Shown here: piece by piece, positions 1 through 8,114 of the stretch
Numbering within the stretch: the stretch's first letter is position 1
Layout: each line of letters opens with the position of its first letter
Source of the DNA: Schmidtea polychroa
Lineage: Eukaryota
Direction of reading: 5' to 3'
Assembly (NCBI GenBank): GCA_044892525.1
Contig: CM097885.1
Span: 34,226,001-34,290,000 of the forward strand
Length of the DNA stretch: 64,000 nt
The notes under the pieces: model-generated
What the model was told of the DNA's origin: nothing
Database searches by the model: none
The model's input: only the letters and a program-made list of their open reading frames with translations
Translations under genes and position numbers: made by a program

Positions 1-394
1 TATTTTTCGGGATTATTTCGACTCAGATGTTAATGTCAATTTTCTGATTAGTCCCTGGCTCTGATGATATCGCAGTCATCGGATGTTTTATCCGGCTTTG
101 AATATTGGAGTGTTCAATTACATCAGTTTTCACCAGTCATTCAACCTGCAATCTGTTTCCTGGGCTGATGTTGAGAATCTGAACCTTCAATACGCAGCAT
201 CGAAACAATATCCCTGCAATAGACAAAAAAAGCATATTTACATGTTTATAAATATATACAACTGCCTTTCTTTTGGAGGGTTCATCTAAAATTCTAAATA
301 TATACAAAGATATTTATACATATACATTGATATTTAAAAACCCGAGAATGACAATGCTTCTGAGATCTTAGAGCAATTTGTTATGGAGATTTTT

Positions 395-3300
395 CTAATT
401 AAGGTCTGCTAAAGTGCCAGTTTTGTGGTAGTACCACCGTCTGGCAGAATGTGTGATGTTACTTATCGTACATTCCTTCAGTAGACTGTTTATTTCTGTG
501 CGTTTAACTCCAATTTTTAAAAGGATTTCAGGAGTTGATGACGGAAAAGAACCCAAAGCTCCGATAATACAAGTGTCAAGTTCGACTTTGAAATCAGGTT
601 TGACAGCTTGTATTTCATTCTTAAGCGATTCGTATTTAATTAAATTTGAAGAGTCAACTAGTTGAAAGTTCTTGACAGAGTCGATAGGACATTTCATGTC
701 AACTAGAAAGATCTTCCTTTTCAACAAATCAGTGATCATTAAATCCACTCGTTCTTTGGAATTCGGAACAAGTGAACAGATATGATCTACTACAACAATC
801 AAGTTGGGATTTTTCATTAATCGATTAGTGATTAATTTCAGACAGTCATCATGTCGCTCTGAGGCAAGGGTCAGATGGACTTTACAAGATTGAATGACAT
901 GTGACATTGTCTCTTCCTCAGTTTGACAACGACGACAAAGTCTTTTACCACCTTTATTGTAAGGCTTCGCATTGACTGAGAGGGAGTTTGTGCGAGCTCT
1001 GTGTATGAAGTTCCAAGCAAATTCAGAGAGAGCACCACGAAAAATTGCGATGTTTATTTTAGGCGAAAGTCTGATTGCTGCAGCTATAATGTTGGAGTTA
1101 TGACTGTTCTCTCCTTTCAAAAGATAGGCATCGCAGAGTGCCATGTGCAAAACCTTAGACGTGGTTTGGCGTAAGTCAGAAGTGAGAATACACGTGCCAC
1201 GCATTGCTGTTGTAATATAAAGCGATGTTTCTTGCTTTGTTACAATAAATGCTATTGAGATTTTGTGATATTTTTCAAAAAATGCAATAGCAGTTCTGAC
1301 TCGCTGGAATCGAGTTTTCTTTCCAGAATGGCAAAGTTTGGATTGCTTACCATTGAGCCAGTCAAGACTCTCCTGTAGTGTAGGGTCTTTTATTCCGAGT
1401 CGAGGTCCAGTGACAAAGCTCAGAGAATCAGTGTTGATCTTTTTCGCAAAGTCACACTTCGATGTTAAGAGTCGAAAGAAATGTGTTATTGTCTGTGTGT
1501 GATATTCGTCAAGAAGGTCTACACAGTTTGCTCCTCCGTTTTCAGTTGAGTTGTAGAAATAACTTACTTCAGAGTGATTTGGCAAAAGTAACATTTTTCT
1601 GAGACAACTCCTCACTTGACTGGTGATGTTGACAGAACGATTACTATTGGCGCTTGGTTTTGAAAGAGCGCTAGTTTTAATTTCGCGAGTTCTAAAGGGA
1701 AAAATCAAACGTGAATGGACAAAGATCTTATAAGCTTTAAGTTTTTGCCATCCAAGTAGGTCAGAGTCGGCAAGTTTTTTCGTGTCAGATACGACCTTCT
1801 CAAGAATGTCATATGGATTCTGATCAGTCTCTTCACCAACAAGCACTCCAAGATACTGATAAAATTCATTAGGTTGTAATTTTTTGATTTTAATGCTGTC
1901 AATCGAAATTTCACTATCTATTTCAAGGTTTGGCAATTGAAGATATGCACACTTTTCAGGGCGATATTCAAAGCCAATTTCAGCTGCAGTTGCTACAGCT
2001 ATATCGGTGATTTTCTGAAGTTCTTCAACAGACTTTGTAACTAAAGCTATGTCATCTGCATATGCAAGGATCTTAATTGGAGATTTCCCAATCCTGAAAG
2101 GTCTACAATCGGATCGCGATACAGCTTCAAGTACTGGATTAATGGCCAAAGCAAACAATATCATCGATATTGGACATCCTTGTTTGACACCTTGTTTAAT
2201 AGGGATGTTTGGTGTCAGAATATTACCACAGCTGTAAAAGGTACTTGTGTTGGAATATAACATCTGGATGATGGATGCAAATTCCTCGCTTACTCCAATG
2301 AATCGGAGTAAGGACCACATGTATTCATGGGGAACACTACCAAAGGCATCTTTTATATCAAGCCAAGCAATTGCAAGAGGCTTATTTACGCTGTATTTTG
2401 AGTGTTCTAGTGCAGCAGAAAGAATTGAATTATGCTCAACACATCCATCATGTTGTGAGCCACCTTTTTGACCGATATGTAAAAGATCATTCGAGTTTAT
2501 CCAACTTGTCAGACGACTAGCTAAACAAGATGCGAAAACCTTGTAAATGACAGAAAGTAAGGAAATTGGACGCCAAGACGAGACGTCATCATATTTTCCA
2601 TCTTTATCCGGCTTAGGAGTTAGAAGTGTTTTGAAGGTCTTCCAACTGTCTGGTATGGTCTTGTTTAAAATGATTTTATTGTACAAGAAAGTAAGCAATT
2701 TACCCTCGGGATCAAGAGACAACAAGTCACGATATTGTATTCCATCAATACCAGGACTTGTGTTCTCAGCTTTCTTTAGTTCGATAAGTACTTCATCACA
2801 TGTGAGCAAAATTAAACGAAGTTTAATTTGGGAACGTTTACAGAATTCAAATATTTTATCCCATGATTTTTCTAAAGGGGTTTTGTGCATGAAATTCATG
2901 ACAATATTTTGAAATTTTGGCATCACTGTGATATTTGTATTGTTGAAGATTTTATTGACTGTTGACTTCATATCAGTCATGAATTTTGCGATTAATTTAC
3001 CCTTGTTGATTTTTGAAGGTAATTTCTTTTTATTTCCCAAGTATGGTTTATGAGTTGATTTTAATTTGTCAGGGAATTGCTCAATGATAACGTCAATGAT
3101 TTCGTTTACATTGAAATCTGTCACTCTCCTCAGTAGTTCTAATGCTCTGAGTTTACGCAATTCTAAATTTGCATTCCCCTCTTTATTTTTGTTACTGTTT
3201 GTTGGTCTTACAGTCTTTTTCCTATTAAAATCATTTACAATTGGGATAAATGAGCTGACGACATTACCAATTTCGTGTAAGTTCAAATTTGTAAGAGGTA

Positions 3301-4999
3301 AGTCTTTAGCATAGTTTTGGATGAACGCGCATATCAGGATTTGACTAACTAGACCTGATCCTCGAGTGTCATGAGGACAATTACCAGTATATAATACACG
3401 GCCAGGTGATTCTCTGATTTCATTAATTTTGTTCCTAAGAATTTTGCAGGTAGGAAGATAACTTTCATTACCACTCAGTGTCGTCGGATTTAGAAGATAG
3501 TGCTCATCAGTTTGGTAATCAATGATAAACAAGATTTCCCTTGATTTTTCTGGTGCTACGATAGTAAATATGACTTGTGCCTTGATCAACGATTCACAAT
3601 CTAAAAATTCATTTAAATATCTAGTGCAATCGTCAAGAATCGCAGTGCACATTGTAGCATTTAAAAACATGAACTTTGTGGGTAAGTTTAATTTATGAAT
3701 GTATTTTGATGTGATTTCATCATTAATTTTACAGTTAATTAAGTTTAAATTCCTGGAGATCTCGTTTGTTTGTTGTATTTTATAAGATTTAAGGGAGTCA
3801 CTGATACTTCTACGACAAACCTGATTGTCAAAAAGTAATTTTTCGACCAATTCAATGACAGCAGAAGCAAATATATCTGGGTCAACAGATGTGATGGAAA
3901 TGTGGTCGATGTTGTGGAGACTATTGAAGTTGATCTTCGTTTGAGAAAGGAAAAATTTATTCATATAGTCTGTCATGTTTTCTCCTATGCCGATTAGTCT
4001 CTCAGTTAGAACTCTGTTGTTAAAGTTGAAAATGTAACTGATTCCTAAAACGAAAGAGAAAAGATACAGACTCCAATTCGTGTCGTCTGGAATGACGCTG
4101 ATGACATGTTCTATTCCAGCAAATTGTTTAAACGTGACATTTTCCCTGATGAATATATCGTTTTGTGCAATAATATTCAATGTCAGTTCATGAGAAAGAA
4201 CAGTAATATTGCTTTTATCTTTATACCATTCACTAATCAGGTATGTGATACATGAGCTCTGTTTCTGGAGATACATCAGGTTACCATTCCTCACCTTCTT
4301 AACTCCATTCCGTTTGATTGTCTCCATGAATTTTGGAAGGCCACCCCCCGAAGTTTTGGGATCTTTTTGTTGTTGAGTAAGTTTAAACTGGTGGACCTCT
4401 TTCCTGATAGTTTCGATGAAGCAGCCCGACAAGCTCTGCCATTCTCCACAAATCATCATGGCATATGCGCAGATGTATGGCCCACAATCATAGCTATTAT
4501 TTTGATATAAAAGGTTATTATGAGGATGAAAAGTCATGGCTGCTTTAAGGTCAAACAATTCATTCAGAGCCATTGTGATCTTAAGAGCAATTGTTTTATT
4601 CGTAAAACTATGCCGATTTAGAAGGATTGGATCGATGAAGTAAGAAATTAGGGAAGATTTACAATAAACGAACAAGATCCAATGAGATTTGTTGATGTTA
4701 AGGGGGCATAATATTACTTGTGCTTTCAAGACTCTTTCCGGAATTGGGAAAGTGTCATTCTCGAGGTTAGAGCACAAAATCTCAACGATAAAACATTTGA
4801 TATACGCAAATTCTGGGTTGATGATGTGATTTTCGAGAAAATTATCAATATCATCATCAGTGAACCAGATCTTTGGGTCGCGTTTTACCATCAAATTTTT
4901 ATTATTATTTATGATGTCGTGATGTTTATTAGAATTTTTTGTGCTGTCTGCATCAGTCTCCTTAGAGATTGGGGCAGATGTTGAGACTGATGCAGGCAC
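395..4999 (-). CDS. Retrotransposon polyprotein: Ulp1/C48-like protease, reverse transcriptase, CCHC zinc knuckle, restriction-like endonuclease
   Basis: Uninterrupted 1534-codon ORF. RT motifs SPGIDG, WRPISLL, WLDIKDAFGSVPH, GVKQGCPIS, LAYADD, YQYLG; C-terminal CRRC-x7-H-x4-C, RHD, RVD..DMK..KY. The called start is GTG two codons after an in-frame TGA; the first in-frame ATG is at 4891. Confidence 0.95.
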   Translation of the reverse strand: MPASVSTSAPISKETDADSTKNSNKHHDIINNNKNLMVKRDPKIWFTDDDIDNFLENHIINPEFAYIKCFIVEILCSNLENDTFPIPERVLKAQVILCPLNINKSHWILFVYCKSSLISYFIDPILLNRHSFTNKTIALKITMALNELFDLKAAMTFHPHNNLLYQNNSYDCGPYICAYAMMICGEWQSLSGCFIETIRKEVHQFKLTQQQKDPKTSGGGLPKFMETIKRNGVKKVRNGNLMYLQKQSSCITYLISEWYKDKSNITVLSHELTLNIIAQNDIFIRENVTFKQFAGIEHVISVIPDDTNWSLYLFSFVLGISYIFNFNNRVLTERLIGIGENMTDYMNKFFLSQTKINFNSLHNIDHISITSVDPDIFASAVIELVEKLLFDNQVCRRSISDSLKSYKIQQTNEISRNLNLINCKINDEITSKYIHKLNLPTKFMFLNATMCTAILDDCTRYLNEFLDCESLIKAQVIFTIVAPEKSREILFIIDYQTDEHYLLNPTTLSGNESYLPTCKILRNKINEIRESPGRVLYTGNCPHDTRGSGLVSQILICAFIQNYAKDLPLTNLNLHEIGNVVSSFIPIVNDFNRKKTVRPTNSNKNKEGNANLELRKLRALELLRRVTDFNVNEIIDVIIEQFPDKLKSTHKPYLGNKKKLPSKINKGKLIAKFMTDMKSTVNKIFNNTNITVMPKFQNIVMNFMHKTPLEKSWDKIFEFCKRSQIKLRLILLTCDEVLIELKKAENTSPGIDGIQYRDLLSLDPEGKLLTFLYNKIILNKTIPDSWKTFKTLLTPKPDKDGKYDDVSSWRPISLLSVIYKVFASCLASRLTSWINSNDLLHIGQKGGSQHDGCVEHNSILSAALEHSKYSVNKPLAIAWLDIKDAFGSVPHEYMWSLLRFIGVSEEFASIIQMLYSNTSTFYSCGNILTPNIPIKQGVKQGCPISMILFALAINPVLEAVSRSDCRPFRIGKSPIKILAYADDIALVTKSVEELQKITDIAVATAAEIGFEYRPEKCAYLQLPNLEIDSEISIDSIKIKKLQPNEFYQYLGVLVGEETDQNPYDILEKVVSDTKKLADSDLLGWQKLKAYKIFVHSRLIFPFRTREIKTSALSKPSANSNRSVNITSQVRSCLRKMLLLPNHSEVSYFYNSTENGGANCVDLLDEYHTQTITHFFRLLTSKCDFAKKINTDSLSFVTGPRLGIKDPTLQESLDWLNGKQSKLCHSGKKTRFQRVRTAIAFFEKYHKISIAFIVTKQETSLYITTAMRGTCILTSDLRQTTSKVLHMALCDAYLLKGENSHNSNIIAAAIRLSPKINIAIFRGALSEFAWNFIHRARTNSLSVNAKPYNKGGKRLCRRCQTEEETMSHVIQSCKVHLTLASERHDDCLKLITNRLMKNPNLIVVVDHICSLVPNSKERVDLMITDLLKRKIFLVDMKCPIDSVKNFQLVDSSNLIKYESLKNEIQAVKPDFKVELDTCIIGALGSFPSSTPEILLKIGVKRTEINSLLKECTISNITHSARRWYYHKTGTLADLN
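480..937 (-). other. CCHC zinc knuckle plus PD-(D/E)xK restriction-like endonuclease
   Basis: CRRCQTEEETMSHVIQSC (884-937), RHD (~848-856), R-V-D (Asp 743-745; the usual Pro is Val), D-M-K (692-700), then KY and IIGALG as in R2/NeSL/R4 C-termini. Confidence 0.85.
1840..2800 (-). other. Non-LTR reverse transcriptase domain
   Basis: YADD encoded at 2051-2062; the other conserved RT blocks are present in the expected order. Confidence 0.95.
4385..4870 (-). other. Ulp1/SENP-like (peptidase C48, clan CE) cysteine protease domain, catalytic residues intact
   Basis: WFTDDDIDNFL start motif; ILCPLNINKSHWILF (His codon 4682-4684); YFIDP (Asp); QNNSYDCGPYIC (Gln; Cys codon 4484-4486). Confidence 0.88.
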
Positions 5000-5005
5000 G
5001 CACCT

Positions 5006-7123
5006 TCATTTAATCTTGGAGACTACTTTCCTCGTTTTCCTACTTGGTCTTGTTAGTAGGTCCTCCTGTTGATCACAACTGGAAATTGCGGGAGTAGATG
5101 GGATTATATCCAAATCAACAGGCAGCTGTCGTTTCAGAGTCGCATGTTCTTGTAGATCACCCTCCAGAATGTCGTTAATCTCTATGGGTCGAGATGGCTC
5201 TTTCACAGCTGTTTCCACCGAGTTATCTAATCCAGGTGTGTTTCTCCTCTGCTCACCATTACTTTCAATCACAGATGTCAAGAGGACATCAAGCATGTCT
5301 GTGATAATGCAAGTCATATTTGGTGTGCAAATTTTCCTACAATGCTTAGGTATACGGTAGGAGAATTTACTGTTAGATAAAAATTTCTTTTTGTCTCTAA
5401 TGATAAAAAAGAGAAATCTTTTAGCTTTTATCATCTCTTCTTCGGATGTACCTAATTCCATTTCATTAATGTTGCGGCCCAAATTCTCAAGAACCTTAAG
5501 TTGGGCAGCCTTTTGTGGACAGATTTCATCAATTTTGTCAAGAAAGGAATTGATTTTATAGATGGTTTCTGGAGAGATAATGTTGTGTATTCTATCGATC
5601 TCCTCTGACAGTTTCCACTGTCGAAGTTTTAGTAGTCTTTCCTGACAACTAGAAGAGTAGTATGAAAGACTGGGGATCATATTAATCATCTCCGGACCCC
5701 AATTTTCGATGTTGTCGCACCTTAATGTATTGCAATTTTCAATTTTAGTAATTGAGTGCATCAAAAAACAATTACGTAAATAGTTTTTAACGTACTCATC
5801 AAATGTAGGATTTGAAATGTGTATTATGGTGCCTTTTAAATTTAAATAGTTGATATAATATATTATGTCAACCAGTTTAGATGGGGAGTTTGGCTGAGTC
5901 AGAAGAGAGTTAAGTATGGGGTCATCTTCTGACATTTTAACAAAATTAACCAATCCCAGGTTGAACATTATATCAGACGCATTTTCAGAATGTGGGACTT
6001 TAGGAATTTCAGTAATTTTATTAGTTTTAATAAATTTGCCCTTCACAAACGAGATCTCATTAGGGAAATTTTTTTCTAATTTTAAATCATTAATTAATTT
6101 AGTTAATAAATCAGGATTCTTATTTATATTCTCAGAAAAATATAATTCCTGAATTTCAGGAAACGATTTATATAACTCTTTCAACTGTGATCGCGAAAGT
6201 TCTAAGGTTTGAAGACTGGTGTTCTCATTACCAGAGTCACAGCTATTGAAAAGATCTAACAAGATAAAATCACCTTCAGAAAATGTTATCTGTGATCTTA
6301 TCAGGAAATCAGGAAGTTCACGTCGTTGTTTCATTCCATTCAAGATGTTATTTGTCTGTGCCGCTCTTTGATTTATATTTTTGATGGTAGCCGTCTCTGC
6401 GAGCTTATGTGAGAGGGAATACAAAAATCTTTTAATTACAGAGGATGCAGGGATAAAACTATCAACATATTTGTTAGTTTTAACAATATTTGAATCTATT
6501 AGCGAAATTTTCAATGCACTAGAAGTCTTTATCTCGATCGGGGCTTTCGCTTTATAGTTCAATTTATGGGAAACGCATATGTTGTGGTTTCTGTAAAAGA
6601 AATGTGAAAAATCCACGATCGACAAAGGATTATCATTTCCAGATATAGAAGCTAATTCTTTATTTATTGTTTGAAATTTATTCAGAGTTTCCCGAGACTT
6701 AATTAATTTACCTAATTTTGGAAAAAGTTTTATCAAATTTATTTTCTCCGTCCTTGAAAGAGTTCTTACATAAGAATGGAAAATTGAATTTGAGTATTTT
6801 TTGTTATTAATCAAATTTTTGCTTTTAAAATATTTTGTATTTTGATACATTTTATTTTTCAAAAGGCCTTTGTTTTCTTTAGCCAAAAAATTTGAATCGT
6901 TTTTTTCAACTTTAATTATATTTAATTTTGATTTGTTTAAGTTATTTAATTTAATATTAGATAACATTTGTTCTTCAAATTTAGGTAAATAAAATTCTAC
7001 TTTTCGAATTTTATTATTAACAGTTATTTTTAATTTAGGTTCCAGATCTCCACATGCCTGAGCCTGATGTTCAAGAGAAGGGCCACTCCGGGTAACCGAA
7101 TGGGAACTCGATTTTTTTTTTTT
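5006..7123 (-). CDS. Upstream retrotransposon ORF of unknown function, in frame with the RT ORF
   Basis: 653 aa from ATG 6967. Manual translation shows the frame stays open upstream to 7123, inside the A14 tract. It ends at TGA 5006-5008, followed in frame by AGG TGC GTG CCT into the RT ORF. Confidence 0.75.
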   Translation of the reverse strand, partial: KKKKSSSHSVTRSGPSLEHQAQACGDLEPKLKITVNNKIRKVEFYLPKFEEQMLSNIKLNNLNKSKLNIIKVEKNDSNFLAKENKGLLKNKMYQNTKYFKSKNLINNKKYSNSIFHSYVRTLSRTEKINLIKLFPKLGKLIKSRETLNKFQTINKELASISGNDNPLSIVDFSHFFYRNHNICVSHKLNYKAKAPIEIKTSSALKISLIDSNIVKTNKYVDSFIPASSVIKRFLYSLSHKLAETATIKNINQRAAQTNNILNGMKQRRELPDFLIRSQITFSEGDFILLDLFNSCDSGNENTSLQTLELSRSQLKELYKSFPEIQELYFSENINKNPDLLTKLINDLKLEKNFPNEISFVKGKFIKTNKITEIPKVPHSENASDIMFNLGLVNFVKMSEDDPILNSLLTQPNSPSKLVDIIYYINYLNLKGTIIHISNPTFDEYVKNYLRNCFLMHSITKIENCNTLRCDNIENWGPEMINMIPSLSYYSSSCQERLLKLRQWKLSEEIDRIHNIISPETIYKINSFLDKIDEICPQKAAQLKVLENLGRNINEMELGTSEEEMIKAKRFLFFIIRDKKKFLSNSKFSYRIPKHCRKICTPNMTCIITDMLDVLLTSVIESNGEQRRNTPGLDNSVETAVKEPSRPIEINDILEGDLQEHATLKRQLPVDLDIIPSTPAISSCDQQEDLLTRPSRKTRKVVSKIK

Positions 7124-7610
7124 TTAAAAATAAATTTTTATTTAAATTTTTTACTTCATTTCTAGTTAAGTAATTAGTATAATTAGGATCATTATTATCA
7201 TTATATATATATGTTCTAGATCCAGCATTTAAGGGTTTATTTATAATTTTAGGTTTAATTATATTTAAAGACTTTGAATTATTTCTTAATTTAGTAATAT
7301 AAGAAATTTTTTTATTTAATTTATGTTTTTGATTTTGAAAATCATTTACTTTATTTTGATAAGAATTATATCTATCAGAATGAAATCCATTACTAAAATT
7401 GTTTTTAAATTCATTATCTTTTACAAAATTATTTAAAAGAGAAGCATTGGCATTCTCAGGTTTTAAACTGTAATCTAGATTTATATAGTTCAAAAATAAA
7501 TCAATCTTACGTTTAATTTCCAGAAATCCATCCTCAATCGAAAACATCCTCCTTGACAAGTCCAAAAGGCCATCTTCCACGGAAATCAGTCCAGAATCTA
7601 ATCTAGGCAT
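7071..7610 (-). CDS. 5'-most retrotransposon ORF segment (coiled-coil-like N-terminus, Asn/Lys-rich), probably fused to the next ORF across the A14 tract
   Basis: ORF track gives 7071..7658. ATG 7610 (MPRLDSG) is the start retained in the inverted copy. Overlaps the next open frame between 7071 and 7123. Confidence 0.6.
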   Translation of the reverse strand: MPRLDSGLISVEDGLLDLSRRMFSIEDGFLEIKRKIDLFLNYINLDYSLKPENANASLLNNFVKDNEFKNNFSNGFHSDRYNSYQNKVNDFQNQKHKLNKKISYITKLRNNSKSLNIIKPKIINKPLNAGSRTYIYNDNNDPNYTNYLTRNEVKNLNKNLFLKKKKIEFPFGYPEWPFS

Positions 7611-8044
7611 ATTTTCATTTGAACGTTGTGCATATAAATAGTTTTTGTCGATATCCATTTGTTAAGATTAACAATCAATTTGCTACTTATAGATTGAAAG
7701 TAGTTATAATAATTTCAAATTTTCGTCTGTCACAAAATATGCCTAGATTAGATTCTGGACTGATTTCCATGGAAGATGGCCTTTTGGACTTGTCAAGTAG
7801 GATGTTTTCTATTGAGGATGGATATCTGGAAATTAAACGTAAGATTGATTTATTTTTGAACTATATAAATCTAGATTACAGTTTAAAACCTGAGAATGCC
7901 AATGCTTCTCTTTTAAATAATTTTGTAAAAGATAATGAATTTAAAAACAATTTTAGTAATGGATTTCATTCTGATAGATATAATTCTTATCAAAATAAAG
8001 TAAATGATTTTCAAAATCAAAAACATAAATTAAATAAAAAAATT
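7305..8044. repeat. Long inverted repeat: arms 7305-7615 and 7734-8044 (311 bp, 4 mismatches), 118-bp spacer
   Basis: Base-by-base comparison; paired positions sum to 15349. Both arms translate as MPRLDSGLIS...HKLNKKI on opposite strands. Confidence 0.97.
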
Positions 8045-8114
8045 CATTATCATTTGAATTCAGATCAATATAATATTTCAATTTCAATATTTGACAAGTG
8101 ACATAAATTTTTTC

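Follow-up and report, generated by a model that had tools for sequence, protein, structure and literature searches.

The sense RNA of a tRNA-targeting non-LTR retrotransposon of Schmidtea polychroa very probably forms a selected helix between its 5' and 3' regions. The arm sequences make both the selection of this helix, in a clade of seven lineages, and its formation in the sense RNA highly probable. The copy described first lies on the minus strand at the start of the window, by which we mean the whole 64,000-nucleotide stretch analysed here. Its 3' helix arm occupies positions 333-361 (core 337-361), corresponding to +34 to +62 of the 3' UTR and lying ~460 nt inside the 3' end of the element. 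The 5' arm occupies positions 7440-7467, encodes codons 66-74 of the 7071-7661 frame of ORF1 (LKPENANAS) and lies ~240 nt inside the 5' end. We favour, with a probability of roughly 0.6 and by analogy with known cyclising RNAs, the reading in which the RNA loop closed by this helix would mark a ribosome-free template state and bring both ends to one retrotransposition complex.

The pairing in the window copy was recalculated from the sequence. The first-pass annotation had matched 333-361 to 7882-7909 and deduced from this a helix with 7440-7467. Both steps were reproduced: 26 of 29 columns match, 7440-7467 is the exact reverse complement of 7882-7909, and the minus-strand segment, starting at +34 after the ORF2 stop codon, pairs with 7467-7440 through a helix that includes a single G-U pair and is interrupted by a C-U mismatch and a bulged U. 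RNAduplex assigned -34.7 kcal/mol to the pairing of 333-361 with 7440-7467. A BLAST comparison of the 394-nt UTR with the remainder of the element lengthened the match to 38 of 47 positions (315-361 against 7440-7485; E 1e-6), which includes a weak AU-rich extension of the 3' arm (315-332, minus strand) that was lost under the strict model. The latter is a nearest-neighbour model allowing loops of at most 2 nt per side with an extra loop penalty, and was adopted because looser models (RNAduplex on 100-nt UTRs and a permissive model of our own) sprawled and separated the helix poorly from background. Under the strict model the helix scored -32.3 kcal/mol versus -19.4 for the next site, and among the long-distance self-matches of the element only a 317-nt inverted repeat is stronger. 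When folded alone, both arms were mostly engaged in local structure (mean unpaired probability 0.30 and 0.38), leaving room for a switch. An exact pattern search identified, among the matches listed, at least 25 copies carrying both arms ~7.1 kb apart in pairing orientation.

The inverted repeat is a foldback at the 5' end of the window copy. Its inner arm (7299-7615) is normal element sequence and holds the 5' helix arm; its outer, inverted arm (7734-8050) holds 7882-7909, and the two arms differ at 6 of 317 positions. As the 317-nt inverted duplication was found in just four of 40 scored 5' ends, these being identical over the query, 7882-7909 is a feature of one insertion. The complementarity first reported is therefore real, but its partner had to be corrected from the insertion-specific 7882-7909 to the family-wide 7440-7467. 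The foldback (7299-8050) has a piece of tRNA-Val spacer in its loop and the outer arm bears alleles of other copies, so two templates may have contributed to it. With a calculated energy of -492 kcal/mol, the foldback would, if transcribed, bury the 5' arm and outcompete the long-range helix, and the window copy is probably a poor example of the helix for this reason and because its ORF1 is frameshifted.

By sequence, the window element appears to be a LIN25_SM-type non-LTR retrotransposon of the RLE group, directed at tRNA genes, and an added member of the already known planarian R5/LIN lineage. It was assigned as LIN25-like because its tRNA junction and terminal 30 nt match LIN25_SM as displayed in S6 Fig of Kojima and Jurka, 2015 (PMC4640811), a comparison confined to the junction and 3' terminus. 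In the RT tree, lineages A-F and two unnamed proteins formed one supported clade; no named LIN sequence was present among the 21 protein-search hits. ORF2 (395-5005, minus strand; stop codon 395-397) encodes 1536 residues, with an Ulp1-type protease at residues 92-184 (Pfam Peptidase_C48, 25.2 bits, cut-off 20.7) upstream of a non-LTR reverse transcriptase domain at residues 798-1053 (Pfam RVT_1, E 1.2e-26), as in NeSL-type architecture. At the C terminus of ORF2 a CCHC knuckle and a second motif, which we take to be a restriction-like endonuclease, were recognised by eye; Pfam zf-RVT scored below its cut-off and no endonuclease model matched. No match to RNase H or to a recombinase was found in the element.

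ORF1 (5009-7661, minus strand) lies in the same frame as ORF2, upstream of a single TGA, and encodes 882 residues in an intact sister copy. The window copy has its ORF1 split into two frames, an A-run at ~7112-7131 being longer by 7 nt. The N terminus of ORF1 is hypervariable and is followed by a conserved, mostly helical domain of 500 residues (window 5270-6787), for which no family, no homologue in the protein search and no fold in PDB or BFVD was matched. A hint of a viral methyltransferase in ORF1 (Pfam E 1e-4 to 4.5e-4, below the cut-off, two of ten members) was rejected, as the predicted model (pLDDT 70, pTM 0.37) is helical there and matched nothing in PDB or BFVD.

The 3' UTR runs on the minus strand from 394 to 1 and on to window coordinate -128, where the last base of the element is joined to nucleotide 5 of a tRNA-Phe gene. 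It thus extends 523 nt past the stop codon, ending in AATAAA plus 8 nt, and the helix segment lies inside the element. A ~520-nt 3' UTR with a single end point was common to all 20 fetched 3' ends, and the segment complementary to the 5' coding region was carried by all 20 loci, so it is a regular part of the UTR in other copies. The 3' ends mostly abut nucleotide 5 of a tRNA gene (Phe, Val, Ser, Glu, Met or His), and the junctions mapped here match the cut between tRNA nucleotides 4 and 5 and the 3' terminus of LIN25; a pattern search for LIN15-type junctions gave no match. Poly(A) was absent from the 3' junction, and an Rfam scan of nine loci returned tRNA and 5S only, with no ribozyme. The 5' end of the element was placed at ~7705 (7705-7734, minus strand), the ~27 nt before it corresponding to the spacer found upstream of tRNA-Val-flanked copies. 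The target, a tandem tRNA-Phe(GAA) array of a 255-bp unit, occupies 8040-64000 on the minus strand, with 215 matches of a tRNA 21-mer. Just before the window (L066), unrelated sequence breaks this array ~5.5 kb past the target tRNA remnant and is followed by array units and then by another element copy.

Protein searches of the same genome identified seven lineages, namely A1 (the window element), A2, F, B, C, D and E, the last six with RT-endonuclease identities to A1 of 97, 84, 81, 79, 64 and 61%, respectively; all copies of this tRNA/5S clade come from one genome. Lineages A, F, D and E reside in tRNA arrays and B and C in 5S rRNA arrays. The B and C copies L060, L065, L071 and L072, all in 5S rRNA gene arrays, recombine mutually and their arms cross-pair. 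Family D (L083, L086) has a similar 3' terminus and cuts deeper inside the tRNA gene than family A.

For 15 representatives, the 3' region (stop -40 to +250) was scanned against ~7.4 kb upstream. The best duplex of every representative fell within the N-terminal part of ORF1, at a distance of 6.6-7.4 kb from the stop codon; its energy was between -23 and -33 kcal/mol, compared with -13 to -23 for controls in which the sequence was reversed or reverse-complemented. Five of six further copies with their own 5' region also ranked the 5' site first, giving 20 of 21 in total, the only miss being L085, a family D copy whose 5' region has diverged and whose ORF1 is broken. The A2 duplexes (-24.2 and -23.1) were each beaten by one of six shuffles, and no real value of any other lineage was beaten. 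A chance match in AT-rich sequence might be considered, given a G+C content of ~26% at 7001-8000 and shuffles that sometimes reached -25 to -28.5. However, none of 100 dinucleotide shuffles of the 3' region of the window copy reached -32.3 (mean -19.0, sd 2.6), and the same place came first in nearly all copies of seven lineages with different letters, which leaves chance with a negligible probability.

Counting was then extended to 51 clade copies, most of the A, B, C and F copies being searched over the 5' 1.5 kb only: the duplex is present in 41, the 5' region is missing from eight, and the remaining two are a chimera and the miss mentioned above. Two loci were left out of these counts, one having no 3' end in its stretch (L059) and one being an incomplete neighbour (L066). 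No matching 5' region was present in the stretches of L057, L058, L068, L074, L080, L096, L097 and L089, and no 5' duplex was found in them; L074 additionally lacks the 3' arm. The chimera (L101, G000:C1:270740300-270750200) combines an A2 5' part with an E-type 3' part and has ends that do not match; its frame is open over 1888 residues, and two similar frames occur elsewhere. The helix of D and E is longer, AU-rich and composed of several helices at +75 to +197, and is not clearly homologous to that of A, B, C and F; in lineage D, cofolding predicted five inter-end helices totalling 104 pairs. When ~380 nt of the 5' region was cofolded with the whole 3' UTR, the site was predicted to be paired to the other end with a probability of 0.83-0.94 in all seven lineages.

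Distant relatives (25-31% identity) were passed through the same scan and no 5'-end duplex was detected in them, several of their 5' ends being unmapped. This set comprised five copies of an rDNA-targeting family, eight of its sister, two of a third family, L194, L107/L108 and the metagenome locus L114; one batch contained 19 loci, 12 of which came from 80 metagenome loci (mostly unrelated RTs). No usable element was found at L109, L111-L113 and L195-L200. The relatives serve as a negative control of the method and indicate that the trait is restricted to the tRNA/5S clade; as no 5' duplex was detected in rDNA-targeting relatives, the helix is not a general need of the enzyme. A duplex of -36.4 in L210 was rejected, since it lies at +152 to +179, where sister copies already diverge into flanking sequence. 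Two other kinds of pairing were noted. In L110, a member of an rDNA-targeting family, 5374-5395 pairs with 3' UTR +42 to +64 in a 22-bp helix (-29.5, 0/20 shuffles; the same in L201-L204), its partner being endonuclease coding sequence 295 nt before the stop codon, and this helix is not found in a 65%-identical sister. In L107, 2493-2532 pairs with 3' UTR +135 to +176 (-34.5, 0/20 shuffles; the same in L108) through low-complexity AAC/GTT repeats in the middle of ORF1, a duplex absent from the sister L194.

Covariation between the segment and its partner was found across families. An 8 x 8 matrix of 5' against 3' regions was block-diagonal, own pairs reaching -24 to -33 kcal/mol and pairs outside the A1/A2 and B/C blocks -8 to -21, mostly background. 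The helix of A1, A2, B, C and F aligned without gaps on a short shared core. Double-sided change was present in 12 of 22 helix columns (five lineages, 14 variants), and own pairs kept 17-21 of the 22; these counts lean toward pairing, as the 5' register was picked by complementarity, and B and C are recombining sisters and not independent. Between A1, B or C, and F, only 10-12 of 22 letters are shared in the 3' arm and 7-13 of 22 in the 5' arm, and the true assignment of arms was the best of 120 permutations. The 5' arm lies in one codon frame, 7-12 codons past a conserved LN motif, which supports its position independently of complementarity, while the peptide that it encodes varies (NANAS, NFNAS, NANRG, NVNKG, DAIAC). 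Among five B/C 5' modules, identity was 0.81-0.89 just upstream of the arm, 0.73 in the arm, and 0.39 and 0.15 within 22-66 nt downstream.

If the copies were inert, decay should yield G-U and A-C pairs in equal numbers. The core columns held seven G-U and two A-C pairs, and a strand-neutral ungapped test gave nine against two (p 0.047), this version having been picked after an earlier gapped test had been non-significant (17 against 10, p 0.19). The bias bears on the possibility, raised in the first-pass annotation, that the complementarity is a relic of template switching, in which the reverse transcriptase would repeatedly copy its own early cDNA into the 5' region and leave functionless complementary scars. 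The enzyme does make 5' inversions, as the foldback of the window copy attests, 5' modules are swapped and diverge fast between subfamilies, and the pairing register shifts between A1 and A2. However, such scars should appear at varied places, break frames and decay evenly, and the helix has a constant position and codon frame, double-sided changes made in place and an excess of G-U over A-C. We consider a functionless by-product improbable; template switching could nevertheless be the origin of the arms or the means of their renewal. The long-range RNA interaction that had been proposed alongside the relic is thus the one favoured, its specific job, for which circularisation in RNP assembly, full-length selection and translational control had been suggested, being chosen from anatomy and analogy.

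The sense strand was moderately favoured as the pairing strand: the sense duplex was stabler than the antisense duplex in six of seven lineages and 11 of 15 copies, most strongly in D and E. Selection might instead act on DNA, the first-strand cDNA folding its 3' part onto its early part and so bringing the cDNA end to the target for 5' joining. The complement has the same arms, its pairing was predicted at 0.67-0.88, and in four of the 15 copies, including both A2 copies, the antisense duplex equalled or bettered the sense duplex. Against this stand the D and E duplexes, which owing to G-U pairs reach only -11.5 to -15.5 in antisense versus -28 to -30 in sense, and the position of the arm 125-370 nt inside the 5' end in mapped copies and not at the terminus; in addition, no RNase H that could free the cDNA was matched in the element. 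A cDNA-level role is accordingly rated as quite improbable. An even more doubtful variant places the pairing between tandem neighbours, such that, within a read-through transcript, the 3' UTR of one copy would join the 5' region of its neighbour and mark a processing site. Copies do often follow one another head to tail, a single tRNA or 5S gene or a few of them lying in between, but many are preceded by long runs of target genes.

The favoured reading, in which the helix closes the element RNA into a loop, would operate in the following way. Pairing of the arms in sense RNA would form the loop, and translating ribosomes would open it, as the 5' arm belongs to coding sequence and the 3' arm coincides with, or closely follows, the ORF2 stop codon; a linear RNA would be translated and a looped RNA would serve as template. 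The loop would leave the distal 3' UTR (~460 nt) free for the protein with the 5' end parked beside it. Target-primed reverse transcription (TPRT) would unzip the helix after copying those distal ~460 nt, and the freed 5' end, now next to the insertion site, could enter the second-strand steps. Granted that the helix is real, we rate a loop or template role as slightly better than an even bet. The stronger proposal, that cyclisation acts as a built-in timer in which the RNA circularises to leave translation and reverse transcription opens the circle for second-strand cleavage and 5' joining, is put forward tentatively, the odds being against it.

The main alternative, a role in translation, has to be weighed at the junction of the two reading frames. 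The in-frame TGA (5006-5008, minus strand) is kept in all seven lineages and is followed after 3 nt by a stem-loop (4941-5003, minus strand; -29.6 kcal/mol, z -6.1), which recurs in all seven (z -2.0 to -6.1). These features suggest that the TGA is likely read through and make it a candidate for programmed readthrough. An in-frame TGA is likewise present in L110, L201-L203, L205-L209, L107, L194 and L114; two rDNA-type families have CTA after the TGA. The TGA-CTA context is leaky.

A base-paired closed loop might serve to deliver an enhancer in the 3' UTR, or ribosomes being recycled, to the 5' end, or it might license UGA readthrough solely on RNA of full length. Normal ends may be missing from the RNA, given the absence of poly(A) at the junction and of a ribozyme in Rfam; ORF2 needs recoding at the conserved TGA with its stem-loop; and the 3' arm adjoins the ORF2 stop codon in A, B, C and F, lying in F within the last ORF2 codons (-27 to -5). 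In tombusviruses, moreover, readthrough depends on an interaction with the 3' end over 3.5 kb (PMC3234231). However, the partner of the 3' arm is the ORF1 N-terminal region and not the readthrough hairpin: paired against the ORF1/ORF2 junction, the 3' region never gave its best duplex there in intact copies and reached -16 to -18 in family F only, a test blind to a short kissing interaction. A 22-30-bp helix within a coding region would also be expected to hinder elongation, and the scan detected no such duplex in relatives that have the same in-frame TGA. A translational role appears less likely, and the template loop remains the preferred reading.

If correct, this reading bears on how a non-LTR RNA changes from message to template and how second-strand synthesis locates its 5' end, and the helix would carry RNA cyclisation from RNA viruses and LTR elements into the TPRT class. 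The timer, if true, would be the first base-paired end-to-end control of TPRT, acting alongside UGA readthrough, and would supply a design rule for full-length insertions. The 22-bp helix and the natural compensatory variants of seven lineages allow exact and cheap testing by breaking and restoring the pairing. Gene insertion with R2-based systems repeatedly suffers from 5' truncation (PMC13580325).

Among characterised elements, LIN25_SM, a tRNA-Glu-targeting member of the R5/LIN group of NeSL-related planarian RLE elements as described by Kojima and Jurka, 2015 (PMC4640811), shares with the window element the cut site between tRNA nucleotides 4 and 5, a near-identical 3' terminal 30 nt, and the RT and RLE, the RLE of the window element being putative; the Ulp1 protease is also present here as described in that paper for NeSL. 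In contrast to the tRNA-Glu target given there, many tRNA genes and, in B and C, 5S genes are hit here, and the 5'-3' helix is added. The ends of this RNA have traits of cyclisation elements such as the flavivirus CS and Ty1 CYC, with complementarity between the 5' coding region and the 3' end and compensatory change, the latter within one genome. In flaviviruses the 5' cyclisation partner lies within the capsid coding region. Circularisation of the flavivirus genome blocks translation initiation (PMC6765113), and the likeness consists in complementary segments at the coding start and in the 3' UTR and in the proposed switch between a linear, translated and a circular, template form; however, that system is an RdRp virus with experimental demonstration, whereas here the evidence is covariation, with pairing kept and arm letters not conserved. 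The CYC5/CYC3 pairing of Ty1 is a 5'-3' long-range interaction described as required for genome cyclisation (PMC7969010), in an LTR element that is primed by tRNA and undergoes strand transfer inside a particle, whereas the window element uses TPRT and has no LTR. In the tombusvirus system a readthrough stop, a downstream stem-loop and kilobase-range pairing to the 3' end are likewise combined, and the 3.5-kb PRTE-DRTE interaction was proposed to cull truncated genomes (PMC3234231); there, however, the 3' end pairs with the readthrough stem-loop, and here with the ORF1 N-terminal region.

The arms also differ from the internal complementary region of DIRS elements, which is complementary to the extreme termini and accompanied by a tyrosine recombinase: here they are internal at both ends, and no recombinase was matched. 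A further parallel is an RLE element, Bombyx mori R2, whose protein holds 5' and 3' RNA and in which TPRT unfolds the 3' RNA, releasing the function of the 5' RNA (bioRxiv 10.1101/2023.04.07.536001). In R2, as proposed here, RNA from the 5' coding region and the 3' UTR engage one protein in turn, and TPRT triggers the change, but the ends of R2 meet via protein, and the sole long-range pairing named in the accessible text of that preprint is within the 5' RNA. The terms 'circular' and 'long-range' are absent from the available portion of a 2026 R2 review (PMC13580325), and a literature search that excluded subscription papers, Repbase reports and bioRxiv supplements returned no report of end-to-end base-pairing for non-LTR elements. 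End-to-end pairing is known for Ty1 and RNA viruses, and its covarying form in a non-LTR clade, as suggested by the arm sequences, is what appears to be new.
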